64,000 nt of DNA from a virus. Of the stretch, positions 27,372-61,656 are shown one piece after another (position 1 is the stretch's first letter; each line of letters opens with the position of its first letter). Both the position numbers and the translations under genes were made by a program. The notes under the pieces are model-generated. The model was not told the origin of the DNA. It searched no databases and was given only the letters and a program-made list of their open reading frames with translations. The stretch lies in IMG/VR virus record IMGVR_UViG_3300037461_001096, positions 1 through 64,000 of that record, one strand, 5' to 3'.

Positions 27372-29057
27372 TTACAATACTGCAAGCCATACAGTTTTAG
27401 GCTCTTCTATGATTTTTTCAAGACCAGCTTGACGCACAAATTCTGACTCTGTCATATGATTCTGTCTAGCTGAGTCCCATACAGTCCGTTTATGGATACG
27501 CTTCCCAGAGTTGATGTCCAAATAATGATATGATAAACTTGTGCTTGGAAGTTGCTTCCAATTCGACGCTTTATATATAGTTCCAGCATCGTCCACTGTA
27601 GTATCAGAGAAACTCAAAATAGCAAGAACATCTTTAAAATCTTGCGCATATGCGTGCAAGAAGCGTCGTAGACAATAGCTGCCCATATTTTTAGTTCTGG
27701 CATTGGGACGTATGCAAAAGCGTCGAAGTTCTTTAAGTTGCTTGGGGCCATAACTGGCCCCAACAGCGTTGTTTACCTTAAGAATTGATTGTGCACGTGT
27801 TACACCGCCAAAAGCACATACAGCCACTAAAGTTTCTTCAAGGTAAGCGCCATAACAACTAGCTATAGTTCCAAGATTTCCAAGATAGTGGAACTGTGTT
27901 AAAAACGCGTGGGCCTCGGAATTTTGTATTTTTTTGAAGTGCAACTTAACAAGTTTCACATCTATTGGCGGTTCACAACAGCCACCAATATGAAAGTCGA
28001 GTACTTTCTTGACACGACCAAGGTTTAACTCATGTTCCCATATCCATACAAGTTTATATCCAGTATGGGTTTCAACCCAACTAGCTTTCGCTCTATCCTT
28101 TGGTAACCCCGAGTATCCATATTGTTTGAAACCATGAAAAAAGTCGCCTTGGCATTCTATGAGTAAGTTAGACTCAGGCACAAAGAAATCAAAACTATAT
28201 GGGCCAAGTATATACTCACGTACAAATTTGACTTTATATGCATTCTGCAATAGTATTTCTATAAGTTGTTCAGTCTTCGGGTTAGACAGCTTTTCACGAA
28301 CTTTTGGGATGTCAAGTGTGTTAATGACTCCATATCTAGTTTCAAGTGTTTTAACTGTTTTTGATCTAATACAGGCTGAGCACGCTATATTTCCTTCTCG
28401 CTGTGCATACTTTGACATAGATATTCGAACTGGGTTCTTACAGTATAAGCAGTCAGCTATAACTTTTTTGGTAGTAAATGGGCTAAGTGAAGCTGGGTCA
28501 TACCCAAACTCAGCCAATGTCGCAGCTGAGTTTACGCCAGAGATGTTAACTCGTGTGCGAAGCCAAAATGCATGACGGTCTTCCTTACGTCCAAGTCTGC
28601 TCCAATGTGAGGCTACGGCGTCACATTTTTTACATGCAGCCGTAGATGTTGGTGTTGTTAAAACGCATAACGATGTTTGATATAAACCCAAACAAAATGT
28701 GCAGTGCGCAACAACAGGTCGGGTTGATCCAGCACTAAGCGATGACAGTTCATAGCCAAAAACAGTTTTCGTTGCCTCTGCGTCTATGCAGTCAGGCAGT
28801 TTTGGACAACGAGCTTCCCGAAAAGCTCGTTTGTCGCCACATGCCCCCGCTCTAGTATATGACGCCGCTATAGAACGACAACGCTTACACGCAGCAGAGT
28901 GCGATCTAGATACAGCCTTCAAAGTCGATTCAAAATTACTTCCACAAAATTCGCATGTAAACACTGCTGGTTTGCGTGAGCCTGGTGTTAATGCTGAAGG
29001 TTTATAACCGAATCGGGAAAGAGTAGCAGCGTCATTTGGTAAACGAGGTGACTGCAT
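27372..29057 (-). CDS. Zn-ribbon repeat + PD-(D/E)xK (DUF559/Vsr-like) nuclease + Mom-like GNAT fusion
   Basis: Three CxxC..CxxC repeats; FDFFVPESNLLIECQGDFFH..WIWEHE; FHYLG, ELRRFC, SFSDTTVDDAGTIYKASNW. Confidence 0.8.
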   Translation of the reverse strand: MQSPRLPNDAATLSRFGYKPSALTPGSRKPAVFTCEFCGSNFESTLKAVSRSHSAACKRCRSIAASYTRAGACGDKRAFREARCPKLPDCIDAEATKTVFGYELSSLSAGSTRPVVAHCTFCLGLYQTSLCVLTTPTSTAACKKCDAVASHWSRLGRKEDRHAFWLRTRVNISGVNSAATLAEFGYDPASLSPFTTKKVIADCLYCKNPVRISMSKYAQREGNIACSACIRSKTVKTLETRYGVINTLDIPKVREKLSNPKTEQLIEILLQNAYKVKFVREYILGPYSFDFFVPESNLLIECQGDFFHGFKQYGYSGLPKDRAKASWVETHTGYKLVWIWEHELNLGRVKKVLDFHIGGCCEPPIDVKLVKLHFKKIQNSEAHAFLTQFHYLGNLGTIASCYGAYLEETLVAVCAFGGVTRAQSILKVNNAVGASYGPKQLKELRRFCIRPNARTKNMGSYCLRRFLHAYAQDFKDVLAILSFSDTTVDDAGTIYKASNWKQLPSTSLSYHYLDINSGKRIHKRTVWDSARQNHMTESEFVRQAGLEKIIEEPKTVWLAVL

Positions 29058-29159
29058 GAAAAATAATACAGCCTACCCAAGTTTAGATCATGGCTCTTTG
29101 GACAGTCACTAGATCAGGGGACGGAAGGACGGGTGTCGTCTCCGGTCTTCAACTTTATC

Positions 29160-32100
29160 CTAGCTAGACACCCGAATTTGAAGACTCGAAAGGATATACT
29201 CGAGCGGGAAGACTGGAACGTAAATCGATTCGGTCCTCATAATCGTTGGATCGTTCGCATCGATACTAGTTAGGATCCCAGCAACCTGAGACACAATTTG
29301 CTGCGAAATCTTATTGCTAAACATCCCTGTAACTGCAGTTTCAGATGATTTGAGCAGTGATCCCGTAAACTTTTGACCGATGAACGGATCGAGAACCAAC
29401 CGCGTTGACTGCTGAATATCTTGAATGACCAGTGTAACAGACGGCGTTCTGGTAATAACGGTGTCCATGCGAGTGGTTAGACCATGACGAATGCGAGTCC
29501 CGGTGTCAACTTGTTCCATAACCGTGACGCCGGATACAGCAATTTGGTTGGCCTCAGTTGGGTCAAGAACGCGCCCAATCCTCTTAAATCCTTGGACTGT
29601 TCGACGGGTCCAAGGAGTTGCAACATCGAACGATGGGTTGCAAGTTGAGCCCGCAACAGCTGCCGCCATAAACGAACCGTCTACAGCTTGGTCGACTGAA
29701 TTTCCCTGGTCATCAACCACTGAAATTACGTAAACATCTGGGTAAACAACAACCATGACTTCGGACAACAACCCCTTTGCAAGGGATTGAACGCCAAGCG
29801 AAGAGGTCCCAGATGCAGGGCCAACGACACCAATGCGTTCGCCTTCTTGGCGAGGAGCGCTCATGAACACGCAATGCTGATTCAGGAATGCAAAAATCTG
29901 TGGATCCGTCGCCAGTGGCGTGACAACGTCAGGCTTTACATTTCCTGTAATCGGTTTGCGTTGTTCATTAATGGCCGTTGTATATGCCGACACAGAAGCT
30001 TGCGAAGAACCAGTATCCCGCAAGACTTGTTTCAATCCAACAAGAACGGCACCGTTTAGCATTGCCAAACGTGCTCCAAGCGACAATGGGTACGAAGGAT
30101 TCGGCGGGCCAAAGTTTGCCTGGATTGCTTTCAAGTCCCGATAAAGGCCAGTCGATAGGTCCGTCTTCATATAATCGTATGAGACGTAATAAACATCACC
30201 GATTTGGGGCTCTGCGCCTGTTCTACTATAGGTAGACAGAGTGGCAGTGCTGCCTAGTCCAACGTTCACAGTGTTGAAGACAGTCGTTTCGACGCCTGGA
30301 ATAGCCTTCCACGGAAGGTTTGCGTCGCAAATGAAGGTAGGATCGACGATCAAAGTGAAGCTACCTCCGTTTGCATAATCACTGACGGTAAGTGGCAAAA
30401 CTGTAAAACGAAGGCCGGTTAGGGCGTCCGTGTACGTTTGGCCAGGAATCCCTGTTCCAGAGGAACCGGCAGAACCAGCGGATGATGTAACGTTAAAGCC
30501 GCTCTTTGCTGCCTCTCCGATATCTCCGCTTGTTCCTGGGACAATGCCAAGGCCAGTATCAGTGATGAATGCTGTGTTCGTGGTACTGGAAAACGACAAA
30601 GTTGACGTTAAACCAGTAGTTAACGAATCGATCTTCAGGTAGGTGCCTAGGCCAGACGCGGTGACAGTCCAAGCAGCAGCAAGTGCAATAAATGAACTGT
30701 CAGCGTTTAGGACCCCCACGATCCTAGACGCCGTGGGTTGACTACGAACAGCCGAAGTGTTGTTGGTGAACCCAAGCTTAACGTTTGCTGTTCCAATCCC
30801 AACAACAACAGACGAAGTGGCGTCGTTAACCTTCGAGAATAGAGTCAATAGACCTTCATTCAGTCCCTGACCGGTCTTTGCAACAATCTCGGAAAGCCCT
30901 AGGCTCACATTGTCCGATGTATCAACAACAAGGTGAACATTTGGTGGGGCGCCAGCAGGTGTGTAAGCAATATGTGCGTTGAACTTAACCTTAAGTTCAT
31001 AAGCCAAAATCAGTAAAGTACGCAGATTTGTAGCGTCTGCAACCGTGACAACATTGGTTACATCCGCAGATCCGTGGACTGGGCTACCACCAACTGTTGC
31101 AATGTGTAGGTTGTACTTCGTTTTGATTTGATTCGCAAGTGTTACTGCTGTTGACAAATCAGTGGCATCTGGAGCTGCTACTGTGTTTGTGACATCAGCG
31201 TTTGTGTGATAAACAACACTTGCCCGGTGGGTGTTATACTTAGTTTTCAGGCTGTTAAGTAAAGCTTCCACGTCAGTCAGAAGAGTTGCTTGATCTGCAG
31301 CGGGGGCTGACCCTGCATACCAGGAGTTGATATAATTCACGACTGCATCTAGTGTGACAGCCGACCCGGACGGAATAGTTGCAGAGTAGCTGACTCCATC
31401 GACACCAAACAAGAATGTGTCATTAACGCCGGCAGTAATAGTGAATGGTTCTGCATTAGAACCAACCATGAAGGCAGGCTGGTTGATGGCGTTCCAAGAG
31501 CCATCAGCAGAACGACCAGGCAACAGACCGAGCTTCGATGAAGCGTCAACTTGTCCAGACCCAGTCGGGGTAAGGACGGTAACATTTGATGAGTATCCAT
31601 TTGTTTGTGTTTTAACGTTTCGACCAGCAACCTTCAGCATGGCCTGCGTTCCGTATGTAACGGTAGAAGCAAGCGCCAAGCTTGTAAATGTTGCCGCCAA
31701 GGCAGAAATCGTGTTCGTTGCGTCGCCAGTTCCACTGTGGATAGCTGGGGCGCCAGTGATATCCACACGATGAGCCTCATACTTCGTGCGGAGATTGTTG
31801 GCTAAAGCAAGAGCGGCTGCCAACCTGGCTGCGGTCGGATCTCCAACAGAGATTGCCGGAGCGGTTAGCACATTCGTCAGGTCGGCAGATCCATGCCATG
31901 TCCCGGCCGCCAAGTGTGCGGAGTACTTCGTGCGCAGGTCGTTTAACAATGTTACAGCGGAGGCCCAGTCAGTAGCAGCAGAAGCAGTGAGAACATTTAC
32001 CGTGTCCGCTGCTAGATGCCACGTTCCGGCTGCCAAGTGACCTGTATATTTCGTACGTAGGTCGTTGGCAAGCGTGACAATGGTAGCAAACCCACTGCTA

Positions 32101-34268
32101 TATGCGAATGTTGCAGATCCGTCAGCATGAGTTTGGACATCGACGTCAATAAAATCATTTATAGCCGTTGCAACGGCGGTCAAAGTGGTAATACCAGTAA
32201 GGGGAACTGGTGAAGCATCTACACCGTCAACCCGAAGTGCGAGATAATCGCTCGAGGCGAATGTCATAGCACCAGGGCTTGAGACTGGGTCACTAAGTAA
32301 TTGAGCCGCGAATCCAGTGCTCAAGTCCACGCTGACTGGACTGCCATCGACGACAACACTTCCGAACGTGTCGGAATATGTGTAAATATCATATGGTCCA
32401 GGACTGCTGTTAGAAAATGACGCATGCGTCGCCGGAAGTAATGAACTGTCAAATGTAACAGTAACAGTCTCCGCGACCGGTGTTCCACCGTAGTGAATAG
32501 CGTCCGGAAGACTTTCAACCCCAGACGGCCACTGAATTGTTTGAGGCAAGTTATTTTTCGCGCCAAAGCGGACCTCGTGTGCGGGATTCCCATTGGACGC
32601 AGCAGTAACAGAGAATTTTCCAATCCCACTTGGGCCCGAGGCTAGGCATGTAAGAACATACTGTTCATCAACGATTGTGTTATACCAGAACGTTGCGTAT
32701 GCATTGTAATCAGCAGGAACTGGGTTCTTCAGTGTTACAAGACCAGTAGCCGATTCCACGGCCATAACAGAAACAGCCGGGCGAGAGTATGCATCTCGGA
32801 ATGTTTTGCCAACATACACTGTCACCAGATCAGGGCGATTGGTTGGTAAGTCTATACGACCATTCGTTATGGTCTGATACAAAGATGTCCCAAGGGGCGT
32901 GTCACGACCGTTTCCAGTCGTTGGGGCAAGAGGGAGCACGAACTTCGTAGTAGATACCGCGTATGTGACTGGGTCGGAATAGCGCGTACACTCTGCGCCA
33001 TATATCCGATTGTCAACTAGTAATCCGTAGACTTGCGTTGAATCGAATGATACACTGCCAGTTTTCGTACCGCTAGCGACCTGGAACGCAGTTCCCCACT
33101 GGATAGTAGACTGATCGCCATTGTTAACAACAACAAAATCCAACCCATTGACGTAGTCACGTCTTCCAGGCGCAACTCCGACGTTCCCAACCGTGATGAC
33201 ATTACTATTCGGTAGGTAGTCAAATGTATCCTGGAATGTATTGAAATAGTATTGAATTGTTACGACAGACCCGGCCTTCGGGGCAAACGGAAGTGTGACA
33301 AGCCTATTTGCTCCGTCAACTGCCGACGCAATGACTTGAACGCCGTTTACCATCACAACAACCTTCGAAGTATCAGTAGTTGTGTAGCCGCCGTCAAGAC
33401 CATCTACGATTGGACCATTGAAAACACGGAATGTAGAACTGCGTCCTGTGTAATCACCCGGATTGAACCCAAGAGCGGTAGACGCGTTTGGGCTATTGGT
33501 TGAAATTCGAAGGTTGCTTTGTGCAGCTAGTTGCACATGATCATATCCCTGAGCATCAGTATGGACAGATGCAGACAATCCAGTAACGGCAGCTGCCGTA
33601 ATATCATTTGCTACCTCAGTTGCAGTGCGGCTTCCGCCGGCAATGGTGACGCTTACGGGGGTTTGATCATCCAAGATCAAATATAAGATGTCATTTGACC
33701 CAGTTGTGATTTGGTAAGGCTCTGCTTGAGGAGCAATAAGAGTCGCCGCACCGTCTGTGACCTGGGATGAAACGTCGTCCGTCGTTCTTGTGTCTTTTCG
33801 ATGAAAATAATAATTAACAGAAACTTGGTCGGTCGGATTGGGGGCTAGGAGCAATGACACAATTCCATTTGTCCCGTCAAGCTGTGAGACCACAACTTGT
33901 TGCCCATTCACAGTTACTGATACTTTCGACGGGTCGAAAGTAACCCTTCCGGCCCCGTTACCGTCTACGACCGGATAGTTTCTTACTCGGAACTTTGTTT
34001 CCGAACCAGTTTGGGAGCCAAGAGTAGGATTAGTGTTAGACCCACTCACAACCCAACGGCCGGAAGCATCTTCCCCAAATATTGGGGTGTCGGCAATACT
34101 ACTTGACCCTCTAATGATCTCAAAGTCAGTTTGAGACAACGCTTCTTTACCAGTTCCAATGAGAACTGGAACACGCAAACCGCCGAGAAGTTGGCCAACA
34201 GAAGGTTCCGAAGTGGTTCGGGTGTAAACGCCCGGAGGCGCGTAGGTACTAAACGGTCCGATGCCCAT
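29160..34268 (-). CDS. Contractile tail sheath protein with large insertions
   Basis: N-terminal YAPPGVYT; C-terminal sheath-like region (GFKRIGRVLDPTEANQIAVSGVTV..IRHGLTT..YVPVFPLEYI); 1702 aa; AAGGAG SD. Confidence 0.85.
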   Translation of the reverse strand: MGIGPFSTYAPPGVYTRTTSEPSVGQLLGGLRVPVLIGTGKEALSQTDFEIIRGSSSIADTPIFGEDASGRWVVSGSNTNPTLGSQTGSETKFRVRNYPVVDGNGAGRVTFDPSKVSVTVNGQQVVVSQLDGTNGIVSLLLAPNPTDQVSVNYYFHRKDTRTTDDVSSQVTDGAATLIAPQAEPYQITTGSNDILYLILDDQTPVSVTIAGGSRTATEVANDITAAAVTGLSASVHTDAQGYDHVQLAAQSNLRISTNSPNASTALGFNPGDYTGRSSTFRVFNGPIVDGLDGGYTTTDTSKVVVMVNGVQVIASAVDGANRLVTLPFAPKAGSVVTIQYYFNTFQDTFDYLPNSNVITVGNVGVAPGRRDYVNGLDFVVVNNGDQSTIQWGTAFQVASGTKTGSVSFDSTQVYGLLVDNRIYGAECTRYSDPVTYAVSTTKFVLPLAPTTGNGRDTPLGTSLYQTITNGRIDLPTNRPDLVTVYVGKTFRDAYSRPAVSVMAVESATGLVTLKNPVPADYNAYATFWYNTIVDEQYVLTCLASGPSGIGKFSVTAASNGNPAHEVRFGAKNNLPQTIQWPSGVESLPDAIHYGGTPVAETVTVTFDSSLLPATHASFSNSSPGPYDIYTYSDTFGSVVVDGSPVSVDLSTGFAAQLLSDPVSSPGAMTFASSDYLALRVDGVDASPVPLTGITTLTAVATAINDFIDVDVQTHADGSATFAYSSGFATIVTLANDLRTKYTGHLAAGTWHLAADTVNVLTASAATDWASAVTLLNDLRTKYSAHLAAGTWHGSADLTNVLTAPAISVGDPTAARLAAALALANNLRTKYEAHRVDITGAPAIHSGTGDATNTISALAATFTSLALASTVTYGTQAMLKVAGRNVKTQTNGYSSNVTVLTPTGSGQVDASSKLGLLPGRSADGSWNAINQPAFMVGSNAEPFTITAGVNDTFLFGVDGVSYSATIPSGSAVTLDAVVNYINSWYAGSAPAADQATLLTDVEALLNSLKTKYNTHRASVVYHTNADVTNTVAAPDATDLSTAVTLANQIKTKYNLHIATVGGSPVHGSADVTNVVTVADATNLRTLLILAYELKVKFNAHIAYTPAGAPPNVHLVVDTSDNVSLGLSEIVAKTGQGLNEGLLTLFSKVNDATSSVVVGIGTANVKLGFTNNTSAVRSQPTASRIVGVLNADSSFIALAAAWTVTASGLGTYLKIDSLTTGLTSTLSFSSTTNTAFITDTGLGIVPGTSGDIGEAAKSGFNVTSSAGSAGSSGTGIPGQTYTDALTGLRFTVLPLTVSDYANGGSFTLIVDPTFICDANLPWKAIPGVETTVFNTVNVGLGSTATLSTYSRTGAEPQIGDVYYVSYDYMKTDLSTGLYRDLKAIQANFGPPNPSYPLSLGARLAMLNGAVLVGLKQVLRDTGSSQASVSAYTTAINEQRKPITGNVKPDVVTPLATDPQIFAFLNQHCVFMSAPRQEGERIGVVGPASGTSSLGVQSLAKGLLSEVMVVVYPDVYVISVVDDQGNSVDQAVDGSFMAAAVAGSTCNPSFDVATPWTRRTVQGFKRIGRVLDPTEANQIAVSGVTVMEQVDTGTRIRHGLTTRMDTVITRTPSVTLVIQDIQQSTRLVLDPFIGQKFTGSLLKSSETAVTGMFSNKISQQIVSQVAGILTSIDANDPTIMRTESIYVPVFPLEYILSSLQIRVSS

Positions 34269-34397: not shown

Positions 34398-36320
34398 TTG
34401 ATGCTGACACCATTACCGAACCAAGATATCCCGTCTAAAGGATCGTCCCGTTTAGTGGACTTTGCATGCTCGTGTGGACAAACTGCTAAGAAACCATGGA
34501 AGGCGTTCATATCAGGACATGTGAATAGTTGCGGAAAATGCAAGGTCGTCAATGCAGATGAATGGCGTCTAGCAAAGTATGGAAAACTCTGCATGCAAAA
34601 TCCCATTGACATCCATGCAAAATCCCACAAACGCGTTGCATGGATATGCGATTGTGGGGCAACGGTTGAATTGCCCGTGGTACAGGTCACATCCGGAAAA
34701 ACATCATCCTGTGGAAAATGCCACCTAGTCTTAGCTTCTGAAGCTGCAAGCATGAAGTTTGGACTCCTACGGCTAAAGCACCCGACGAACCTATCACGTG
34801 GGTCACATGTTAAAACCACTTGGGTTTGTGACTGTGGGAAAGAAACGGTGGCTGAGATCGGGAATGTGGTTCGGGGACTCACAAAATCATGTGGGAAATG
34901 CTCAGTGCTGGCAGCAGATCATTTCAAAAAGGAAAAATATGGAAAATTAAGAATGAAACAGCCTGCGGCTTTCCATCCAGGTTCAGAACAAGAAACCACT
35001 TGGGTTTGCGACTGTGGGAATGAGTTAAACACACGCGTCGGATATGTAGTATCTGGACAAATGAAGTCATGTGGATGGTGTAATGCCGTCAATGCTGAGC
35101 CGACGCCTAAATATGGTAAATTGCGGATGAAGGATCCGGCTAGATTTAAACCGGGGTCTCACGTCAAAATAACTTGGATTTGCGACTGCGGCGGAGAAAT
35201 TGTTGTACCAGTATTTAATGTGACACGAAAACTCACAACAAGCTGTGGTCGATGCCATGAGAGGGCCATGGAGTGGTATACCTCAAATAAGGGAATAATA
35301 AGAGCGCTACGCCCGCCAATATCTTGCGATCAAGTTCCTTCCGGCTTCTTGCGTGTGCTTGAACCAGTTTTAAACACTGAAAAACCTTTCTTGGTGGTAT
35401 GTGGAGCATGTAAGAATGAGTATAAACCGTCATGGGATAACATTAGGAGAGGGCATTCCTTAACATGTGGATGCTGCACGCATCGTATATCTCGTGGTCA
35501 GTCAGAATTGGCTGATTTTATTCGATCCTTGGGTGTAAGCGTTGTAGTAGAACAACGAATTGGGGACTTAACGTATGATATATCGGTGAAGTCCAAAAGT
35601 ATTCTCATTGAATATAACGGACTGAAATGGCACCAAGGTCAAAGTGGACAACGAAGAGATATGATAAAATATCGGAACGCGTTGGCTCATGGGTGGAAAT
35701 TTATTTCAATATTTGAAGACGAGTGGATCTGGCAAAGGCCAAAGATCGAATCCGTCGTCAAACATAAACTAGGGCTTTACAGCCCCATGTCCGTTAGGCC
35801 GTCCCGGTGTAGCATACAGTTAGTGCCAGCCAAAGAGGCTGATGAATTTTACGAAAAACACCATTATATAGGTCGTGCAAAAGCTCCCATTAATTATATA
35901 GTACGTTATAATGATAATCCAGTGGCTTGTATGTCGTTCAGTCACCCAACTAGACAGTCAAAGTATACTTGGGAACTCGTGCGCATGGCTTCTTGTCCAA
36001 ATGTTAGGGTGCACGGAATATGGTCCAAGTTATTCCGTAATTTTGTGGCAACTAAGGAGCCACAATCTGTGGTTAGCTTTTCCGACAACCGTCTATTTGA
36101 TGGGGGTGTTTATGAACGCCTCGGGTTTAAATTAGACGGAGAGATTCCAGCGGATTATTATTGGTGCAAGGGACAGCGGCGCTGGCATAAAAGCGGACTT
36201 AGAAAGACCCCTGAAGAACGTGAAAGCGGTTTGACAGAGTTTGAGCTTCGTACAGGGCAGGGGTACTTCCGCGTATGGGACGTCGGGAAAAAGAGGTGGG
36301 TGTGGACTTGTCCAGGTTAA
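34398..36320 (+). CDS. Zn-ribbon repeat + PD-(D/E)xK nuclease + GNAT-like (Hef-type) fusion
   Basis: Repeated WxCDCG..SCGKC units; YDI..LIEYNGLKWH..IFEDEW; HHYIG, WELVRM, SFSDNRLFDGGVY, WDVGKKRWVW. Confidence 0.8.
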   Translation: MMLTPLPNQDIPSKGSSRLVDFACSCGQTAKKPWKAFISGHVNSCGKCKVVNADEWRLAKYGKLCMQNPIDIHAKSHKRVAWICDCGATVELPVVQVTSGKTSSCGKCHLVLASEAASMKFGLLRLKHPTNLSRGSHVKTTWVCDCGKETVAEIGNVVRGLTKSCGKCSVLAADHFKKEKYGKLRMKQPAAFHPGSEQETTWVCDCGNELNTRVGYVVSGQMKSCGWCNAVNAEPTPKYGKLRMKDPARFKPGSHVKITWICDCGGEIVVPVFNVTRKLTTSCGRCHERAMEWYTSNKGIIRALRPPISCDQVPSGFLRVLEPVLNTEKPFLVVCGACKNEYKPSWDNIRRGHSLTCGCCTHRISRGQSELADFIRSLGVSVVVEQRIGDLTYDISVKSKSILIEYNGLKWHQGQSGQRRDMIKYRNALAHGWKFISIFEDEWIWQRPKIESVVKHKLGLYSPMSVRPSRCSIQLVPAKEADEFYEKHHYIGRAKAPINYIVRYNDNPVACMSFSHPTRQSKYTWELVRMASCPNVRVHGIWSKLFRNFVATKEPQSVVSFSDNRLFDGGVYERLGFKLDGEIPADYYWCKGQRRWHKSGLRKTPEERESGLTEFELRTGQGYFRVWDVGKKRWVWTCPG

Positions 36321-39452: not shown

Positions 39453-40118
39453 CTATGTAAAACGTTTTGTCAATATAGTTTCCAATTCGGTTGAAAATCT
39501 ATTTGAAATAGCATCATATAGACGATCCATAAAGTCACCCATAATACCCTGAAAAGCATTTTTCGGAAGCTTGATGCCAAATTTTCCGGTTGACACTGAT
39601 CGCTCTATTGTCAGAGCAAGCTTTCCGTCATCAGTTATACTCATACCGTGTGGGTTTTCTATACGTTTATCATTTAGTTTTTTCCTAGCATCAAGTGCAG
39701 GGTATCTAGCGTCTTTAATTCGATGCTTGGCGTCAAAAGTAGACTTACGCGCGTCCACTTGGGGTGTTCGCAAATCACGAACGATGCGTCGGGGGCCTTC
39801 CATACCTATTTCGAAAGATTTTGTCACGCGATCTAGCATTTGTTTACGAATTTTTGAAGCCTCAGACCTAATGGCATTCATCGTCTTCTGATCTGTTGCT
39901 ACAACTCTGGAAGAATCGACGATAATTTCAAACAAAACAGAGTCACCAGCCACGTGCGAGTATACCTCACATTGCTTTAAACGTTCTGACACACCAGCGT
40001 CATCTAGTGTTTGTTTCAGCGCAATCAAACCGTCTATAGCAATTTTCTCCATGATGCCGTCCATAGCTCTATTCATAGCCGCATGGAGCGTTGTGGAAAT
40101 TTCACCAGGCATGGCCAT
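39453..40118 (-). CDS. Putative virion morphogenesis protein
   Basis: 221 aa coupled to the upstream gene; internal 7-residue DA[RK] repeats. Confidence 0.65.
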   Translation of the reverse strand: MAMPGEISTTLHAAMNRAMDGIMEKIAIDGLIALKQTLDDAGVSERLKQCEVYSHVAGDSVLFEIIVDSSRVVATDQKTMNAIRSEASKIRKQMLDRVTKSFEIGMEGPRRIVRDLRTPQVDARKSTFDAKHRIKDARYPALDARKKLNDKRIENPHGMSITDDGKLALTIERSVSTGKFGIKLPKNAFQGIMGDFMDRLYDAISNRFSTELETILTKRFT

Positions 40119-44494: not shown

Positions 44495-44703
44495 GTCATA
44501 TGACTCCTGTAGAAAACTCCCCAAATTTTGTTCGTCCTTATAAACTGTCTAGTTTCATTGGTACTTCGCCATCAGAAGTATGGGCGATAACCATATGACC
44601 CCCAGACCACTACTGGGTAGCTAATTCAATCTCCGACCCTATAACACGCTGGTTGACCTGCAATAATATGGTGTATTATCTGAGGTGAATTGCACTGCTG
44701 CAT
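44491..44703 (-). pseudogene. Small gene with two internal TGA stops
   Basis: TATAAT + GAGGAG + ATG; MQQCNSPQIIHHIIAGQPACYRVGD*ISYPVVVWGSYGYRPYF*WRSTNETRQFIRTNKIWGVFYRSHMT*; final stop overlaps purC ATG. Confidence 0.5.
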
Positions 44704-48206: not shown

Positions 48207-49835
48207 TTAGCGAAGGTCATAAACAAACTTAATCTTGGGAGGCGTATGGACTTTCTTGTAACCAAGAGCCTCAGCACACTGGCGCTCCTGCATGTTTCTC
48301 GCTTTAGCAAATTCGTACAAGGTCTTTTTGTTTACTTCATACCCTTTAGTATCTTCGTAATAATAGCTGCGAGCAGTCTCCCCGACGCGCTGCCAGTTTG
48401 AGGCCACATAAATAGTACCAACATGGCCGAAGCGCGGATCTGCAAAGGACACAAGCTTCACAATTTGAGGTTTATTTGCAGCAATCCATTTTATAGCTTT
48501 TGACATAAAGAATGAAGCAAAATTCTTGGCATGATACATCGGATGAATACAAAAACGATCAAGTTCAAGCACTTGTCCATTTTCCAGTCCCACAGCTTTG
48601 GCGATCCCCTGTCTGACCGGCGGGGCAAACTTAGCCACGCCAATAAGATTTTCTTCAACCCAGGCACCATATACAAGACTGGATGAACGACCAAACCCGG
48701 CATAATGATGCTGAGTCAAAAACTCTTGACATTCTTTGAGAGAAGCTGCCGATGTTAAAACACTTGATAGTTTAAATTGCGTCTGTGGAACATTCAAATT
48801 AGTAATTTTATTTCGAGTTGTTCTAGCAGGAGTCCCATTGAGAGCAGATTGTCTGCTGCGCTGATGTATGCACAACCCATGTCCTCTATGCTTACTATGG
48901 TTACAGTTCCAGCACAATAATTGATAATCAGATTTATCTAAGTCTCCACGCAAAATGGCGGTCATCAGACTCATTCCGGTGCGTTGACCGTCCGCTCTAA
49001 GGGTAGACCCGTTGTTCTGCATGTGGTCAACCACAAGTTTATGCCACTCATTTATACCACAACACCGACATGTCCCACCGAGCGCGTGTATGGCAGCCAT
49101 ACGTTGTTGTGTCCGGTGACGATTCTCACACGAAAGGCATCTTAAAACATGCCCCCGTGGGAGAAACATGGATTTATCAAGATGCTGACAGCAATCCGGA
49201 CAAAATCTGGTCTCCCCGGTCAATGGTTTCTGCACAAAATTGTTGACTGGGTATAAACGGTATCTACCAACATTGCAGTTATGACACAGCACCTGATATC
49301 TGGACTTATCAAACGTGCCGTCCAAGATTTTACGTTTCCATCCAAGAGACCCCATATGGCGCTCTTTATTACCATCATCATTAATATGATCTATCGTTAA
49401 AAACTCCTTCTCCGATTCCCCACATATTTGACAAACCCCGCCGAGTGCAAGAAGGGCTGCTTCAATGATAGACTTGCGATACTGTTTGCTCTTTGACACT
49501 AGAGCGTGTTTATTTTGCTCTCGCCATTTTGCAACACGTTCTGAGATTTTTGATTTATTGGTATGCCAATACTCAGTCTTTTTAGTAAGCAGGTGTTCAG
49601 CATTATCACGATAATACTGCTTTTTCTGTTCTAAAATCGTTTCCCGGTTTAATGCATACTTCTCCCTTCGCTGTTCAGAAATTTGAGAAGAATGTTCCAC
49701 CCGGTATCTTCTAGCCATAGAAGAACGGCATAACTTGCACTTAGCATCATAACCATTTGCTTTTATACTATTACGATAAAAATCATTTTCTAATGTTTTT
49801 TCTTGACCACACCCAACGCATATTTGTATAGTCAT
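48207..49835 (-). CDS. Tandem HNH nuclease + Mom-like GNAT fusion
   Basis: Two LGGxCxxCG..DH..DG..LCxNCN units; HHYAG, LELDRFC, NFAS, SFADPRFGHVGTIYVASNW. Confidence 0.85.
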   Translation of the reverse strand: MTIQICVGCGQEKTLENDFYRNSIKANGYDAKCKLCRSSMARRYRVEHSSQISEQRREKYALNRETILEQKKQYYRDNAEHLLTKKTEYWHTNKSKISERVAKWREQNKHALVSKSKQYRKSIIEAALLALGGVCQICGESEKEFLTIDHINDDGNKERHMGSLGWKRKILDGTFDKSRYQVLCHNCNVGRYRLYPVNNFVQKPLTGETRFCPDCCQHLDKSMFLPRGHVLRCLSCENRHRTQQRMAAIHALGGTCRCCGINEWHKLVVDHMQNNGSTLRADGQRTGMSLMTAILRGDLDKSDYQLLCWNCNHSKHRGHGLCIHQRSRQSALNGTPARTTRNKITNLNVPQTQFKLSSVLTSAASLKECQEFLTQHHYAGFGRSSSLVYGAWVEENLIGVAKFAPPVRQGIAKAVGLENGQVLELDRFCIHPMYHAKNFASFFMSKAIKWIAANKPQIVKLVSFADPRFGHVGTIYVASNWQRVGETARSYYYEDTKGYEVNKKTLYEFAKARNMQERQCAEALGYKKVHTPPKIKFVYDLR

Positions 49836-50094: not shown

Positions 50095-51000
50095 TTAGAT
50101 GCCAAGAAACCTGCGCGGAGTAAGTGCACCACGGCCTACACTCGGACCAAATGAAGAACGAATTCCTAGGCCATATCTTGACTGCTTCAAACCGCGGATT
50201 ATTTTTACCGTCTCTTTTGCGGCGGTAATCATATCATTAAATCTAGTTTGAGCATCGTTTGCCATGCTCTGATATTTAGAAGATTTTTCCAGACTCAATG
50301 AAACACCGCCTATTGAATACTCGAATTCGTCTGCAATCCAATTTGTTGATATAGCAGTAAGTGCATGCACCATTGCCCCGACAAATAAAACAGCTCGCCA
50401 GTTTCTATGATGGGTGATGAGCTGGTCCAGGGTGTTATAGAATGTCTGTGGCGCATAAGAATTAATTACATCCAATGATACGTTTAAGAACTCTTTTAGT
50501 TCTTCGTCTAGCCACAGATGCCCAAACACCCTAGTGAGTTGGTTGATTGATTCTTCGCTGGCGGGTGGTACAAAATGATAATGTCTATCCGGATTTGCGT
50601 CACGAAGCATAATCCTAAGACCACGGATTAAGTCAATTTCTATTTGTGTTATTCCTGGAACGGTAATGATTTGTTGCGAATTCCCAACGATGTTGAATTC
50701 TTGTAAAACTTCAGCTTGTTTAGAGTTTAAAAACTCGCGGAAGTGCCATCGTATTCGATATCTCCCAATATTGGCATCGGGTGGTATTTTAAAAGCTGCA
50801 TAATACTCCCCAACGGATGGATTTTCAGGTCGGCGCTCAGAAGGAGGCAACAGTATTTCTACCCCCGTTGTAAAATCATAAATATCATAGAAAATTTCTG
50901 CGGCATTCTTCGGTGTACCATCTCTTTTCTTCAGAAAAATGTTCAGCCCATCAGCACGGGTTAGCTCTTGGCATCGCTTGAAGACAACACTCATGCTCAA
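50095..51000 (-). CDS. Putative head-tail adaptor / neck protein
   Basis: N-terminal Ig-like GEYYA..GRYRIRW; C-terminal YSIGGVSLSL..YQS pattern seen in adaptor proteins. Confidence 0.55.
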   Translation of the reverse strand: MSMSVVFKRCQELTRADGLNIFLKKRDGTPKNAAEIFYDIYDFTTGVEILLPPSERRPENPSVGEYYAAFKIPPDANIGRYRIRWHFREFLNSKQAEVLQEFNIVGNSQQIITVPGITQIEIDLIRGLRIMLRDANPDRHYHFVPPASEESINQLTRVFGHLWLDEELKEFLNVSLDVINSYAPQTFYNTLDQLITHHRNWRAVLFVGAMVHALTAISTNWIADEFEYSIGGVSLSLEKSSKYQSMANDAQTRFNDMITAAKETVKIIRGLKQSRYGLGIRSSFGPSVGRGALTPRRFLGI

Positions 51001-51038: not shown

Positions 51039-52742
51039 ATGATATACACCAAAAAATGTGTCAAATGTGGTGAGATAAAGGATGAGAATGACTTTACTAA
51101 GAGATCAGAATTTTCGTTCCGAAATGAATGTAAATCGTGTATATGCAAATTAAGAAAGAAACACTATGAAATAAGAAAGTCCCTAGAAAAATGCGAAGTC
51201 ACACATAAGACGTGTATTCATTGTAAAGAGACTAAAAATAGGGACGAATTCAGAAAACATCCATCAAATAAGGACGGTATGGACGCTGTATGTAAAGAAT
51301 GTATGTCAGAATACTATAAATCAGACGTTATGAAGGCGTATTTACTACGCAAAAAGTTAAGCGGACGACAAAAAGAAATCGTAAACAGATATCGTATATC
51401 CCATGCCGAACAAATAAAAGAACGAAAGAGAGATACGAGAACATCGTTTGCTCATTCAATACAAATTGCAGAGTCCAGGATGAGGTCCGAACTTAGGACT
51501 AAAGTTCACCAGATAATTGGCGGAAAGTGTGTGATATGTGGTGAGGAAAGAACAGAAAGACTGTGTATAGATCATATAAACGACGATGGGTCAAAAGAAA
51601 GGCTTAGTCAGGCAGGAAGTTTCAGAACAATAGCTTTGAAAATTGTGAATGGCGAAAAATGGGATGAAAAATATCAATTATTATGTTTCAATTGTAATAA
51701 ACAGAAACAATTAAATAGACTTAGGTCGATCGACAAAAACAACAAGCCAGAAATAAAAGAAACAAAAACTTGTACTCAATGTAGCCGAGTTTTGCCGATC
51801 GGTATGTTTGCTGAGTCAAAAGGCAAACTAAGAGGTAAATCTTATTGTAAAGATTGTGGATGCGTTTATAACCAAAAACGAAAGAAATTCTGTATAGATA
51901 AACTGGGAGGAAAGTGCACAATCTGTGGTGAAACTAGAATTGATATATTAGAATTAGATCATATTAATAATGATGGGGCCGAAAAACGAAAACTTGGACA
52001 AGACAGCCAGATCATTTTAAAGATTTATTCTGGAAAACGGGATGTTGGTGGTCTTCAAATTTTATGTGCAAATTGTAATGCGGCAAGGTATTATTGGTCG
52101 ATAAAAGAAAAAGTTGGTGTAGTCCCCACAAAACGACAGCCAAAACCAAAAGAAGTCATAGACTTTTCGATCAAAAATCTTGTAATTAGTCAAATACCAC
52201 AAAAAACAGCAAGAGACTTTCTGAATGAGCACCATTATGCTGGGTGTGGGAGAAGTGGAAAGGTTTATTATGGCGCGTTTCTTGATAGTCAAACCGTGGC
52301 AGTGGCTAAATTTGCGCCAGTTGTACGAAAAGAGGTAGCTACTTCCATGGGTCTTAGTCATCAGTCAGTAATCGAACTAGACAGGTTCTGTATAAACCCT
52401 GTCTTTCAAAAGAAAAACGCAGCGTCTTTTATTCTGTCAAAAGTAGTCAAAATGCTTCCAAAGATTTTTTCGGAAGTTACACACATAGTTTCATTCGCCG
52501 ATACAGCACAGGGACACAGAGGCACGATTTATGCGGCTTGTGGATGGAAAAAGATCGGAGTGACGTCAAAGAGTTATCATTATATTGGAAAATCAGGGAA
52601 TGTGATTAATAAGAAAACACTTTATGGACGGGCAATTCGTCAGGGTATGACAGAACGAGAATATGCAGCATTTTATGAATATGAGAAAATAGAGACACCT
52701 GAAAAAATTAAATTTGCGTTACAGGTAAACAATTTACAATAA
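51039..52742 (+). CDS. Tandem HNH nuclease + Mom-like GNAT fusion
   Basis: CxxC zinc fingers; two GGKCxICGE..DHINxDG..LCxNCN units; HHYAG, IELDRFC, SFADTAQGHRGTIYAACGW. Confidence 0.85.
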   Translation: MIYTKKCVKCGEIKDENDFTKRSEFSFRNECKSCICKLRKKHYEIRKSLEKCEVTHKTCIHCKETKNRDEFRKHPSNKDGMDAVCKECMSEYYKSDVMKAYLLRKKLSGRQKEIVNRYRISHAEQIKERKRDTRTSFAHSIQIAESRMRSELRTKVHQIIGGKCVICGEERTERLCIDHINDDGSKERLSQAGSFRTIALKIVNGEKWDEKYQLLCFNCNKQKQLNRLRSIDKNNKPEIKETKTCTQCSRVLPIGMFAESKGKLRGKSYCKDCGCVYNQKRKKFCIDKLGGKCTICGETRIDILELDHINNDGAEKRKLGQDSQIILKIYSGKRDVGGLQILCANCNAARYYWSIKEKVGVVPTKRQPKPKEVIDFSIKNLVISQIPQKTARDFLNEHHYAGCGRSGKVYYGAFLDSQTVAVAKFAPVVRKEVATSMGLSHQSVIELDRFCINPVFQKKNAASFILSKVVKMLPKIFSEVTHIVSFADTAQGHRGTIYAACGWKKIGVTSKSYHYIGKSGNVINKKTLYGRAIRQGMTEREYAAFYEYEKIETPEKIKFALQVNNLQ

Positions 52743-55132: not shown

Positions 55133-55154
55133 ATCGGAAAGCTACATCGGAAGG

Positions 55155-55484: not shown

Positions 55485-57260
55485 ATGTTAACAATATCAG
55501 AAAATGAAATTCCGAGGTCACAATGGTCTACATCTCTAGTTAAATTTGATTGTTCATGCGGTCGAAAAGGGGTACTGAAACCATGGGCAAAGGTTATCAG
55601 TGGACACATAAAATCCTGTGGACAGTGCAATATACTGTTGAAACATCATTGGGAAATAACCAAATATGGCCGTTTAAGAATGACGCAGCCGTTCGATTGC
55701 AAGAGGGGGTCAAATACTCCAGTCGAATGGACATGTGACTGTGGCCGTGTCACCCTACTGCCAGTCAATAGAGTGACCAGTGGTAATACTGCATCATGCG
55801 GGAAATGCAACGAAATAGACACAGGGACTATGAGTCATTTTAAGTTTGGAAAACTTAAAATGAAATTTCCGGCTCCAGTGTCGCGCGCTTCAGGTAAACG
55901 TGTGTTGTGGGTGTGCGACTGTGGTAACGAAGTATTGGTGTCAATAATTGATGTTTTACGTGGTCACACCGCATCATGCGGGAAATGTGGTATACTGCCC
56001 CAAGAATTTTGGGAAAAAACCAAATTCGGCCGACTTCGTCTTTTACATCCGCAAAGTATGACAATTAGATCAAACCGAAAGATGGAATGGCATTGCGACT
56101 GTGGTGAAGTTTTAACGGCCGTGGTTGAAAATGTAACCACGGGGCGCACCACATGCTGTGGGAAATGCAGAAACAATGTCGACGAATGGTTTATTCAAAA
56201 TCGATCTAAAATTCGAATGATGAAACCACCAATTCAACCAAGTGACTTACCATCAGGATCTTTTACCATTCTTGATACTGTAACACGGACTGCTGACCCA
56301 ATCCGTGCCATATGCGGCGTATGTGGCGCAGAGTATTTTCCACGTTGGGACCATGTGAGATCTGGGGTGGCGTTAACCTGTGGTTGTAGCACAAATCGTG
56401 TTTCAAAAGGACAACAGGAATTGGCAGATTTTATACACAGTCTTGGCGTCAATGTGCTTGTTGAACATAAAATCGGAAAACTAGCATATGATATATTTGT
56501 ACCAGAAGCAAACATAGCAGTTGAATTTCAGGGAATAAAATGGCATTCTGTTCCGGGATCAAAACAACGTGATATGGCAAAGTATAGAAACGCCGAAAAT
56601 CACGGAGTGAGCGTAATCGCTATATTTGAAGATGAATGGCAGCTACGTCGAAAACAAATTAGTCAATTGGTTAGTAATAGACTTAGGAAGAATTTCCCAA
56701 CGCACACGCTTCGAGCGTCATCTGTGCTAATAAGACATGTGCCAAGTACTGATGCAAATAAATTTTATGAAGCATTCCACTATATTGGAAAATGTCGTGC
56801 AACAGTCAGTTACGGGGCTTTCGTCAATGATATAATGGTAGCTTGTTGTTCATTTTCTAGACCAACCAGGCAGTCATCCCATCCGTGGGAATTAGTCCGA
56901 ATGTCATCAAACTCTGATTATAGGGTACATGGTATATGGTCTAAGATCTTGCATCATTTTATTAATGATTTCCATCCGACGTCAATTGTATCATTTTCAG
57001 ATAATCGAGTATTTGTTGGCCGTGTTTATGACAAACTCGGGTTCAAACATGACGGAAACGTTCCACAAAGTTATTACTGGGCAAAGGGTGGCAAAAGATT
57101 CAACAAATCTGGCTTACGTAAACATGGCCTGGAACGTAATAGTCAAGTAACAGAAACACAATTACGTGAGTTTCAAGGATTCAACAAAATATGGGACCTT
57201 GGTAAAAAGCGTTGGGTGTGGCGAAGTCAACTACAGGAGATAACAACTAAAACAACGTAA
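55485..57260 (+). CDS. Zn-ribbon repeat + PD-(D/E)xK nuclease + GNAT-like (Hef-type) fusion
   Basis: Paralog of 34398..36320: WxCDCG..SCGKC repeats, YDIFVP..VEFQGIKWH, FHYIG, SFSDNRVF, WDLGKKRWVW. Confidence 0.8.
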   Translation: MLTISENEIPRSQWSTSLVKFDCSCGRKGVLKPWAKVISGHIKSCGQCNILLKHHWEITKYGRLRMTQPFDCKRGSNTPVEWTCDCGRVTLLPVNRVTSGNTASCGKCNEIDTGTMSHFKFGKLKMKFPAPVSRASGKRVLWVCDCGNEVLVSIIDVLRGHTASCGKCGILPQEFWEKTKFGRLRLLHPQSMTIRSNRKMEWHCDCGEVLTAVVENVTTGRTTCCGKCRNNVDEWFIQNRSKIRMMKPPIQPSDLPSGSFTILDTVTRTADPIRAICGVCGAEYFPRWDHVRSGVALTCGCSTNRVSKGQQELADFIHSLGVNVLVEHKIGKLAYDIFVPEANIAVEFQGIKWHSVPGSKQRDMAKYRNAENHGVSVIAIFEDEWQLRRKQISQLVSNRLRKNFPTHTLRASSVLIRHVPSTDANKFYEAFHYIGKCRATVSYGAFVNDIMVACCSFSRPTRQSSHPWELVRMSSNSDYRVHGIWSKILHHFINDFHPTSIVSFSDNRVFVGRVYDKLGFKHDGNVPQSYYWAKGGKRFNKSGLRKHGLERNSQVTETQLREFQGFNKIWDLGKKRWVWRSQLQEITTKTT

Positions 57261-59064: not shown

Positions 59065-59133
59065 ATAATTTCATATTAATAATATGTAAAATATAAAGAG
59101 TAGTGTTTAACACAAACGAGATCCTGGTGAAAA

Positions 59134-59844: not shown

Positions 59845-59859
59845 CAATTTGAAGCAAGC

Positions 59860-61656
59860 ATGAATTTTAGTGTATGGCTTACAGAGTTTGTTAAATCCGG
59901 AAGTAATGAAATAAATGGGAATCTATTACTGTCAGTAATAGATCCAAACGGGAAATTCACTCAGTTAATTAAAGTGAAATGTAAATGTGGGGCTATTAGA
60001 ACAGTGTCCCTGTATGCATTTATATCACAAAATAAACAGGTTACTTGTGGTCGTTGCCATCTGTCAAAAATAAAAGAATCTGGTCAAACAACCTTTAATA
60101 ACTTAACCATCTTAAGTAACCTCGAAGAGTCTCGCGGATCTGATAGAGTTAAAGTTAAATGTTCATGCGGGAACGTTGTAGACAACGTCATTTTGCGACA
60201 GGTGTTCGCTGGTAATAAAAAGTCATGCGGATCATGCTCAGTGAACAAAGTCAAAAAATTTGGTCAAACCAAATTTGATAAACTACTAATACTGACACCC
60301 CTTGATTCGATCAAATTAATCTCTCAAAAAGTTGATGTTATATGTGACTGCGGGAACAAAGTTAAAGTTATTTATAGAAATTTAGTCACAGGTAATAGTA
60401 AGAGTTGTGGAAAATGTGAACTATTTTCATTGAAACAATCAGGGGTTGTTAAATGGGGGAGGCTGTCACTTATTGATGACCCATCAACGCTCAAATCATT
60501 GAGTCAACAAACCAGTTTCTTGTGTAATTGTGGGAGAGTTACACGGTTAAAATTATACAACGTTGTTTCTGGCCACACCACAACTTGTGGGAAATGTTAT
60601 GAACAAGTGAGGGCAGCGTTTGATAATCGAAAAGAAGAATTCAAAGAAATGCAGTTCCCAATTCCTCCAGGGAAGTTATTCGGGGTTATAGAATTCAAAA
60701 ATACCATATATAGTAGCAATACGAAATTAGATGCTAAATGTCCAATATGTAATAATAAATGGGCACCCGCATTCAAAGACATTAAGAGAGGTTATTCGCT
60801 AAGTTGTGGATGTTCACTTCATATTACGTCGGGACCACAAAGAGAAATCTTTGAACATATCATATCGACTGGTTTTGAAGCAATGTGTGAGGCTCGCATA
60901 GGCGGATTGAAATATGACATATTCATACCGTCTGCTTCTCTTGCTATTGAATATCATGGTCTCAAGTGGCATTCAACAGATTCAAGCAGGCGTTCTGACC
61001 TAAATAAATATAAAACTGCCATTGCCAGTGAGATTGATCTCATGGTAGTATACGAAGATGAATGGGAAAATAAAAGAAAACAGATTTGCGACATAATTAA
61101 TAACAGATTGAACGTAGCAAAGACAAAGTTTAGAATACGTCCTTCTAGATGTAGAATACTACACATTTCGAGTAATGCAGCTGACACATTCTATGATCAA
61201 AATCATTATATTGGAAAGACTTGTTCTAACATGAATATATGTGCCGAGTTTGATGGAAAAATTATTGCATGTATGTCTTTTAAACACCCAAATAGGCAGT
61301 CAAAATACACATTCGAGTTAACTAGAATGGCGTCTGACCTGGATTTTCGTGTTCATGGTATTTGGTCAAAACTTTTCAAAAAATTTGTGAATGAAACCAG
61401 TCCAGAATCGATCGTCTCATTTTCAGATAACAGACTTTTTACTGGAAAAGTATATGAAAAACTTGGGTTCAAATTTGATGGGAACGTAAAGCCTGATTAT
61501 TATTGGGCGAAAGGAAGACGTAGATTTAATAAATCTGGACTGAGAAAACCCCTGGGAACTATTGAAACAGAACAAGATCTACGCACGAGTCAGGGTTTTT
61601 TTAAAATTTGGGATCTAGGTAAAAAGAGATGGGTGTGGAAAACTCCCGAAAAATAG
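59860..61656 (+). CDS. Zn-ribbon repeat + PD-(D/E)xK nuclease + GNAT-like (Hef-type) fusion
   Basis: CxCG..SCGxC repeats, YDIFIP..IEYHGLKWH..YEDEW, NHYIG, SFSDNRLF, WDLGKKRWVW. Confidence 0.8.
   Translation: MNFSVWLTEFVKSGSNEINGNLLLSVIDPNGKFTQLIKVKCKCGAIRTVSLYAFISQNKQVTCGRCHLSKIKESGQTTFNNLTILSNLEESRGSDRVKVKCSCGNVVDNVILRQVFAGNKKSCGSCSVNKVKKFGQTKFDKLLILTPLDSIKLISQKVDVICDCGNKVKVIYRNLVTGNSKSCGKCELFSLKQSGVVKWGRLSLIDDPSTLKSLSQQTSFLCNCGRVTRLKLYNVVSGHTTTCGKCYEQVRAAFDNRKEEFKEMQFPIPPGKLFGVIEFKNTIYSSNTKLDAKCPICNNKWAPAFKDIKRGYSLSCGCSLHITSGPQREIFEHIISTGFEAMCEARIGGLKYDIFIPSASLAIEYHGLKWHSTDSSRRSDLNKYKTAIASEIDLMVVYEDEWENKRKQICDIINNRLNVAKTKFRIRPSRCRILHISSNAADTFYDQNHYIGKTCSNMNICAEFDGKIIACMSFKHPNRQSKYTFELTRMASDLDFRVHGIWSKLFKKFVNETSPESIVSFSDNRLFTGKVYEKLGFKFDGNVKPDYYWAKGRRRFNKSGLRKPLGTIETEQDLRTSQGFFKIWDLGKKRWVWKTPEK

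Follow-up and report, generated by a model that had tools for sequence, protein, structure and literature searches.

The 64,000-nt stretch analysed here (the window) is the first part of the 139,067-bp viral record IMGVR_UViG_3300037461_001096. It carries six genes, P0001 to P0006, each of which joins a nuclease head to a C-terminal tail related to Mom, the adenine-modifying protein of phage Mu. Judged from sequence comparisons and structure models, they are very probably selfish genes for homing-type nucleases that end in a Mom-family tail. All six open reading frames (ORFs), first picked out in a sequence-only reading of the window, were found to be open. P0001 (27372-29057, minus strand, 561 aa) consists of three zinc ribbons, a Vsr/DUF559-like nuclease (approximately 27978-28292) and a Mom-type GNAT tail (27381..27965), the parts lying on the strand of the gene here and in the following cases. 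P0002 (34398-36320, plus strand, 640 aa, TTG start) has 5+1 zinc-ribbon units, a Vsr-like nuclease (35463-35762) and a Hef-type Mom-like tail (35787..36308), which was the copy modelled. P0003 (48207-49835, minus strand, 542 aa) starts with a zinc/coil region, followed by two HNH modules (49236-49475 and 48861-49100) and a Mom-type GNAT tail (48216..48782), and P0004 (51039-52742, plus strand, 567 aa) similarly combines a zinc/coil head, two HNH modules (51489-51728 and 51879-52103) and a Mom-type GNAT tail (52158..52724). The remaining two genes, P0005 (55485-57260, plus strand, 591 aa) and P0006 (59860-61656, plus strand, 598 aa), each contain 4+1 zinc ribbons, a Vsr-like nuclease (56379-56684 and 60805-61119, respectively) and a Hef-type tail (56703-57224 and 61129-61641). 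A search with a six-tail profile brought the total to eight copies in the 139 kb of the record, the two copies outside the window being located at approximately 75925-77766 and at 98550-100469 of the record, both on the minus strand. The G+C content was 0.36-0.39 in four of the eight copies (0.361 in P0004 and 0.359 in P0006) versus 0.434 for the record. Three of the six window genes (34398, 51039 and 55485) were oriented opposite to both neighbours, in agreement with the earlier remark that several of them oppose the operon direction. The protein collection lists the 51039-52742 gene as a 403-aa product (P0044), a gene call made from an internal codon; the 567-aa long form is supported by the homology of its residues 1-134 to a remnant found in a related genome (locus L003, described below).

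The tail was the element common to all six proteins. In the six-tail alignment 19 columns were invariant, and they included the motifs HYxG, ELxR and SF[AS]D..G.[IV]Y on which the proposal of a shared C-terminal domain had been based (H-Y-x-G, E-L-x-R and S-F-x-D...G..Y in the alignment). The Pfam family Mom (PF25680, gathering cut-off 27.1 bits) was matched above its cut-off by P0001 (75.5 bits), P0003 (92.8 bits) and P0004 (88.8 bits), while PHROG 1384, 'Mom-like DNA modification protein', matched all six proteins with E-values from 1.2e-34 to 1.7e-4. The P0003 tail was matched to the structure of Mu Mom (PDB 8bv8) by phmmer with an E-value of 1.2e-8. Profiles built from Hef-type tails alone and searched against PDB sequences retrieved generic GNATs only (E 0.035-0.48) and did not reach 8bv8, so that linking the Hef-type tails to Mom required profile-profile comparison and a structure model. 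A set of 21 tails was used, comprising the eight from the record and 13 from a 362-kb relative (12 Hef-type and 9 Mom-type). When the 12 Hef-type tails were compared with the 9 Mom-type tails, hhalign gave 99.45% with an E-value of 4.8e-22 over 174 columns. The joint profile of the 21 tails retrieved Mu Mom from the PDB at an E-value of 7.7e-12, with the runner-up at 0.0063. The AlphaFold2 model of the P0002 tail, computed from the 21-row alignment, reached a mean pLDDT of 92.9. Foldseek placed 8bv8_A and 8bv8_B first for this model (E 2e-7 and 4.7e-7), followed by generic GNATs from 2.3e-5, and VIA-align superposed it on Mom with a Z-score of 13.7 and an rmsd of 3.1 over 146 residues, the longest alignment in the list. 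A short helical segment occupied the position of the helix-turn-helix (HTH)-like insertion of Mom in the model.

The fold of the tail is thus GNAT beyond doubt, and among known proteins Mom is the closest to it in the sequence profile comparisons and in the Foldseek ranking, as the sequence-only reading had anticipated. Mu Mom (PDB 8BV8; PMC13219725, PMC7261163) is both the nearest solved structure and the nearest sequence relative. It is a stand-alone, nuclease-free protein (crystallised chain of 232 residues), whereas the window tails are fused to nucleases, and its identity to the Hef-type tail is 12-16%. The Hef-type tail, which had been listed as a class of its own, is a sister clade within the same Mom-like domain and not a separate entity. 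The profile of the Hef-type tails matched 16,930 representative clusters at E <= 1e-3, a count that includes other Mom relatives. The prediction of a homodimer from two Hef-type tail copies returned a score of 0.00, which is no answer and counts neither way. One homolog, P0029 (874 aa), contains two complete Mom-like tails (residues 323-508 and 684-872) and may represent either a tandem fusion or a two-gene read-through.

The heads fell into two types. P0001, P0002, P0005 and P0006 contained DUF4379 treble-clef zinc ribbons and a Vsr/DUF559/MTES_1575-like nuclease, which upholds the zinc-ribbon and nuclease architecture assigned to them earlier and defines the nuclease as Vsr-like. In P0001, the Pfam matches were above the cut-offs for DUF559 (22.7 bits, cut-off 20.6) and DUF4379 (25.0 bits, cut-off 24.5); the MTES_1575 matches of P0002, P0005 and P0006 were under the cut-off (22.7-32.3 versus 38.2 bits). 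The latter three proteins matched the homing-endonuclease families PHROG 559 and PHROG 3339 nearly end to end, with E-values of 7.4e-81 and 7.9e-57 for P0002 (near full length in both), 1.5e-73 and 1.6e-62 for P0005, and 7.6e-71 for P0006 with PHROG 559. P0001 matched the same two families with E-values of 7.3e-22 and 1.7e-16. An E...D...(N/Q/H)G..H...D pattern was aligned in the nucleases of all four proteins, and the best, weak match of the P0002 nuclease among PDB sequences was 3r3p (E 0.26). This structure belongs to I-Bth0305I (PMC3239194), whose family has the E/D/H/D nuclease pattern in common with the four window proteins; unlike the window genes, I-Bth0305I is intron-encoded, carries NUMOD/HTH binding modules and has no GNAT tail. 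In the same work, Taylor et al. 2011 placed Hef-type proteins in the Vsr-like EDxHD family (PMC3239194).

P0003 and P0004 each contained two HNH/endonuclease-VII-like modules, as the sequence-only reading had proposed for this pair. P0003 matched the PHROG families of endonuclease VII (E 8.5e-11) and HNH (E 1.4e-9 and 2.9e-7), and P0004 matched the HNH family PHROG 2255 over two stretches (E 9.4e-26). The motif C-x2-C ... D-H ... N ... C-x2-C-N was present in the modules, and the four of them shared invariant C, C, D, H, C, N, C and N residues. The Pfam HNH match of P0003 was under the cut-off (16.8 versus 21.4 bits); the homologs P0016 and P0038 have PF01844 on record. A profile of the HNH module searched against PDB sequences gave only spurious matches (E of at least 0.43). 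The twin modules would provide two cutting sites per chain.

The relationship between tails and heads was examined in 76 proteins, namely the six window genes and 70 matches of P0003. The set comprised 39 proteins with twin HNH modules and a Mom tail (including the two from the window), 22 with a Vsr-like nuclease and a Mom tail, 7 with another head and a Mom tail, 2 with one HNH module and a Mom tail, and 6 with twin HNH modules and no Mom tail. Pfam identified DUF7487 heads among the remaining architectures. A FastTree phylogeny of 109 tails was divided into two clades, both with a support of 100: a Hef-type clade of 43 rows (36 Vsr and 0 HNH) and a Mom-type clade of 66 rows (40 HNH and 18 Vsr). 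The nuclease type changed at least 4 times on the tree, with 2 of the changes forced by well-supported branches; shuffled labels required 30.5 changes on average, and none of 500 shuffles gave a number as low as 4. P0001 itself carries a Vsr-type head on a tail of the Mom-type clade. The tails of P0048 (DUF7487 head) and P0032 (twin HNH) were 91% identical over 209 aa and their heads were dissimilar, and P0049 and P0022 likewise shared a tail (61% identity). The tail was also the best conserved part in all three ortholog pairs compared (71, 68 and 72% identity versus 34-64% elsewhere). In line with these comparisons, the view already put forward from the letters stands, according to which the GNAT domain is the constant part and the nuclease and DNA-binding heads are exchanged.

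The closest relative found for the record was G001, a complete sequence of 362,524 bp bearing terminal repeats, and it contains 13 copies. Three window genes had an ortholog there at the same junction, one of them inverted; of the other three, one was represented by a remnant, one was missing and one did not turn up in the regions of G001 retrieved. The ortholog of P0003 lay at the same junction (locus L003) and was 60% identical, with flanking genes at 66-80%. The ortholog of P0005 (63% identity) occupied the same junction in the same orientation, and that of P0002 (62% identity) the same junction but inverted relative to identical flanks, with no flanking inverted repeats that would explain the inversion. 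For P0004, only an N-terminal remnant of approximately 159 aa was present at the junction, without nuclease or tail. P0001 had no ortholog at its own site, its best match (39% identity) being elsewhere in G001, and no P0006 ortholog was seen within the parts fetched. The nuclease genes thus diverged faster than their flanks (60-63% versus 66-80% identity). In two more distant relatives, L001 and L002 (18% and 53% complete), 0 copies were found, the window genes being absent at comparable junctions; P0002, for instance, was absent at the corresponding junction in L002. Alleles without the genes were not encountered in any close relative. The predicted free-standing character and patchy presence of the genes were therefore borne out. 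The pattern is that of free-standing homing endonuclease genes, and the comparative evidence suggests invasion, decay and loss. Target-site duplications or terminal repeats were considered and rejected: the longest direct repeat shared by the two ends of a window gene measured, across the six genes, 0-8 nt in a 60-nt margin and 0-9 nt in a 150-nt margin, lengths that randomly paired positions also give. The out-of-window Hef-type copy at 75925-77766 is bracketed by an exact 11-nt direct repeat (75908 and 77686); repeats of at least 11 nt occurred in 41 of 1000 random pairs of 150-nt windows, so this one is not clearly above chance.

Among deposited phages, a tblastn search with P0002 matched 408 records, with only 24-31% identity to any of them. 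The matches included genes annotated 'Hef-like homing endonuclease' in PA5oct, AR9/PBS1, CP30A and PC5, and were found at five places in PA5oct and at ten places each in the Campylobacter phages CP30A and PC5. One PA5oct gene with this annotation encodes a Vsr-like domain and a Mom-like tail. Cleavage and homing have reportedly been demonstrated for Hef of the T-even phage U5 alone. U5 Hef is cited as a homing endonuclease cleaving nrdB (PMC2988022). Genes of the widespread Hef-like family, to which the four Vsr-type genes of the window are assigned, include F-LimIII, VII, VIII and X of LIMEstone1; they are described as free-standing, multicopy and located beside conserved genes, like those of the window (PMC3296691). 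The same domain combination is documented by Iyer, Anantharaman, Krishnan, Burroughs and Aravind 2021 (Viruses 13:63), who reported Mom-nuclease fusions in jumbo phages (PMC7824862, section 3.4.7). These fusions and the window genes follow one design, in which a jumbo phage carries several copies of a Mom-GNAT domain joined to a nuclease of the restriction-endonuclease (REase) fold. The partners named in that section are of the REase fold only; the twin-HNH heads of the window and the DUF7487 heads of homologs go unmentioned there and may be listed in the supplements. Among the papers covered by our literature search, none describes a twin-HNH-Mom partner, with the reservation that the supplements of PMC7824862 and PMC13219725 may list HNH fusions, and none connects Hef or homing endonucleases to a Mom or GNAT domain in the way considered here. 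Both the design and the cut-and-protect idea are therefore already in print, and the DNA studied here adds eight diverged members and a clear exchange of tails.

In the proposal of Iyer et al., momylation would shield the phage and the nuclease would attack other DNA (PMC7824862). Applied to the window, the six genes would be weapons resembling restriction-modification systems, in which broad adenine modification makes the phage resistant to restriction by the host as well as to its own nucleases, and the nucleases degrade unmodified host or superinfecting DNA. The proposal was made for precisely such jumbo-phage Mom-REase fusions, and the five momylating enzymes that its authors count in PA5oct (PMC7824862) correspond in number to the five places matched by P0002 in that phage, including the 'Hef-like homing endonuclease' gene with both domains. 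A broad action would also agree with the short SAS motif modified by Mu Mom, which covers approximately 20% of adenines (PMC13219725). We nevertheless regard this explanation as quite improbable for the window genes. Their long zinc-ribbon arrays suggest long and rare targets rather than frequent ones, and the pattern of gain, loss, inversion and remnants, together with a divergence above that of the flanks, fits selfish genes, as does the status of U5 Hef as a cited homing endonuclease. Moreover, a single broad modifier would be enough, yet each nuclease has its own tail.

The active-site residues of the tail were compared with those of Mu Mom. The alignment to 8bv8 was used for mapping, and the register was fixed by the alanine that the crystal carries at the S124 position. 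According to the 2026 study of Mu Mom, the S124A mutant has no catalytic activity, and in Y59A activity is drastically reduced. The enzyme can hardly, if at all, do without R111, D149 and R151, which are placed around the flipped adenine, and H58, Y59, Y159 and W181 also matter for its function (PMC13219725). Five, and most likely all six, of the residues H58, Y59, R111, S124, D149 and Y159 had their equivalents in all six window tails, and the R151 equivalent was an arginine in P0002, P0003, P0005 and P0006. The P0003 tail keeps all seven Mom residues checked. Conservation was similarly high among the 70 tails of the P0003 search set (H58, Y59, R111, D149 and Y159 in 70/70, S124 in 67/70), and the 147 Hef-type representatives retained the equivalents of H58 in 146, R111 in 147, D149 in 144, R151 in 143 and Y159 in 146 cases. 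In our reading, the tail domain is under strong selection and its adenine pocket is retained throughout. Mu Mom takes its donor group from Gly-tRNA(Gly) and not from acyl-CoA (PMC13219725), which corrects the acyl-type chemistry assumed in the sequence-only reading; the acyl-CoA chemistry assumed by Iyer et al. (PMC7824862) was likewise superseded by later work. No tRNA genes were found within the 64-kb window, a result that is uninformative on the chemistry of the tail either way. The tail could also act as a reader that recognises adenines modified in competitor DNA and directs the nuclease to them, a modification-sensing role that had been offered as an option from the start. Nucleases carrying reader domains derived from enzymes form a general precedent for this role. 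The equivalents of S124 and Y59 kept by all window copies and by 67-70 of the 70 Mom-type tails speak against it, no reader-specific feature was found, and the idea gained no support of its own. It ranks last among the explanations considered and is very improbable.

Several results weigh against the interpretation of the six genes as homing nucleases with an active, self-marking Mom tail. At the level of domain assignment, the Pfam Mom match of P0006 was below the cut-off (15.2 bits), with all Pfam GNAT families likewise under their cut-offs for this protein, and P0002 and P0005 gave no Pfam Mom match. VIA-align did not separate Mom from generic GNATs (Z 13.7 versus 13.0-13.7). The structural case for the HNH modules was weak: for a model with a pLDDT of 72.7, built from a four-row alignment, the best Foldseek match was the Gme HNH nicking endonuclease at an E-value of 0.05, with none reaching 0.001, and all VIA Z-scores were under 5, many of the rows being HNH nucleases (Cap5, Cas9 HNH, T4 endonuclease VII and McrA). 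The evidence for mobility that comes from the absence of copies in L001 and L002 is weak because both relatives are distant (40-53% protein identity) and incomplete. In addition, there are 8-13 paralogs per genome, whereas a general modifier is needed only once; self-marking would therefore have to be site-specific, which is conjecture. With respect to the active site, R151, which is essential in Mu, is replaced by T (P0001) or A (P0004), and just 31 of the 70 tails from the P0003 search have an arginine at this position. The Hef-type representatives keep Y59 in 93/147 and S124 in 125/147 cases, the annotated PA5oct copy appears to lack both equivalents (pairwise alignment), and the W181 equivalent was unconserved in the alignments. 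With Y59 and S124 varying in this way, part of the family may be without catalysis. Catalysis by the tail is plausible for the window copies and is probably not universal in the family.

These deviations bear directly on the explanation that the tail is a catalysis-free DNA-handling module, either an adenine-flipping clamp or a dimeriser, which positions the nuclease; the genes would then encode ordinary homing endonucleases in which only the binding domain is unusual, and nothing would be modified. The residues surrounding the adenine (R111, D149 and R151) are near invariant in the Hef-type representatives, and the positions that vary there, Y59 and S124, are the ones linked to catalysis in Mu by the mutants mentioned above (PMC13219725). 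The loss of R151 in part of the Mom-type clade points in the same direction. A dimerising role would find parallels in Mu Mom, which is a tight dimer (PMC13219725), and in the Vsr-like I-Bth0305I, which works as a dimer (PMC3239194). Against this stand the complete H, Y, R, S, D, Y set in 6/6 window copies and the near-complete retention of Y59 and S124 in the Mom-type clade. Furthermore, 3 to 6 zinc ribbons or zinc/coil heads are already available for DNA reading, and the twin-HNH type would make a double-strand break without a dimer. On balance, we consider a catalysis-free tail, the main rival explanation, unlikely in the window.

The best explanation overall, to which we assign a probability of roughly 0.6, is that the window genes are homing nucleases with a self-marking Mom tail. 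In the four Hef-like genes, the zinc-ribbon array would read DNA. In co-infecting relatives, alleles without the gene would be cut by the nuclease and would acquire a copy of it during repair. The tail would bind double-stranded DNA, flip out an adenine and, most likely, move an aminoacyl group onto it from a charged tRNA, as Mu Mom does. The carrier genome would in this way be marked at or near the nuclease's own site and thereby spared. Taken alone, the self-marking role of the tail is a tentative proposal, short of even odds. It leads among the possible roles because every nuclease has its own tail and the tail is the best conserved part, and because the Mom residues are kept in the window and the heads already supply DNA reading. 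A more specific version is doubtful: the tail would mark, via charged tRNA, an adenine inside the long target site of its nuclease, and unmarked co-infecting alleles would be cut and converted. Such built-in epigenetic immunity would spare the carrier without any sequence change, and the tail would be an immunity module portable across Vsr, twin-HNH and DUF7487 heads. To our knowledge, sequence polymorphism alone is known today as the basis of self-immunity in homing endonucleases, and these enzymes would gain an epigenetic route to it if the proposal were true. It would also offer programmable pairs of a DNA cutter and a DNA marker. With active tails, the very large Hef-like family would represent the largest reservoir of DNA-adenine hypermodifying enzymes known. 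Taken by itself, the window is an ordinary result. The interpretation offered in the sequence-only reading was on the whole partly supported, namely in the nature and constancy of the tail and the patchy distribution of the genes, whereas the proposed modification and protection of DNA by one-polypeptide elements are conjecture.

The setting of the genes was also analysed. CheckV estimated the record of 139,067 bp to be 33% complete, and it is therefore a fragment from an uncultured jumbo phage, the full genome being probably near 400 kb. Megablast of 20 kb of the window against 50,697 phage records gave no match. The gene at 50095..51000 (minus strand, 301 aa) lies between P0003 and P0004, P0004 being divergent from it, and its product is conserved in relatives, with 80% identity in L003 of the 362-kb relative and 51-53% in L001 and L002. 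The placement of nuclease genes on both sides of a conserved gene was thus confirmed here. The product had zero matches in Pfam, PHROGs and NCBIfam, and the gene may be a homing target. In L002 (6584-9149), its homolog falls into three parts that lie in different reading frames, and approximately 1.3 kb of extra sequence is present, perhaps owing to an intron, intein or inserted gene. The second such neighbour, a 1702-aa gene (29160..34268, minus strand), lies between P0001 and P0002 and is 71% identical to its homolog in the 362-kb relative. It may be the gene previously called a sheath gene, an unverified label: the product gave a sub-threshold match to DUF2460 (22.9 bits, cut-off 30.4) and a weak match to an unnamed PHROG, with no NCBIfam or PDB-sequence match. 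Neither a sheath nor any other structural name was obtained for the neighbours from Pfam, PHROGs, NCBIfam or the PDB sequence search, so the structural identity ascribed to them found no support in these searches. In PA5oct (MK797984.1, 121410-123026; L027), the gene immediately after that of the tail sheath encodes a Hef-like homing endonuclease, a placement resembling the one ascribed to the window genes.

Further differences from G001 were noted outside the nuclease genes. In L003 (17928-20000), the homologs of the neighbouring window genes 39453-40118 and 37987-39198 are approximately 2 kb apart, and no ORF of the record matched the intervening segment at an E-value of 1e-8. At 118000-120794 of G001 (L025), synteny breaks approximately 8 kb beyond the 1702-aa gene, with other genes in between; G001 has homologs of the far end of the record (134328-139065) there instead of window positions 1-27000. 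Two nucleotide-metabolism genes are located amid the nuclease genes, encoding SAICAR synthetase (43523-44524, minus strand, Pfam E 4.5e-66) and OMP decarboxylase (61776-62612, minus strand, Pfam E 3.8e-50). The G+C content of the latter, 0.642 versus 0.434 for the record, suggests that it was recently captured from a GC-rich host. A GC-rich block (0.619) was also found at 2001-4000, the rest of the window having a G+C content of 0.38-0.50.

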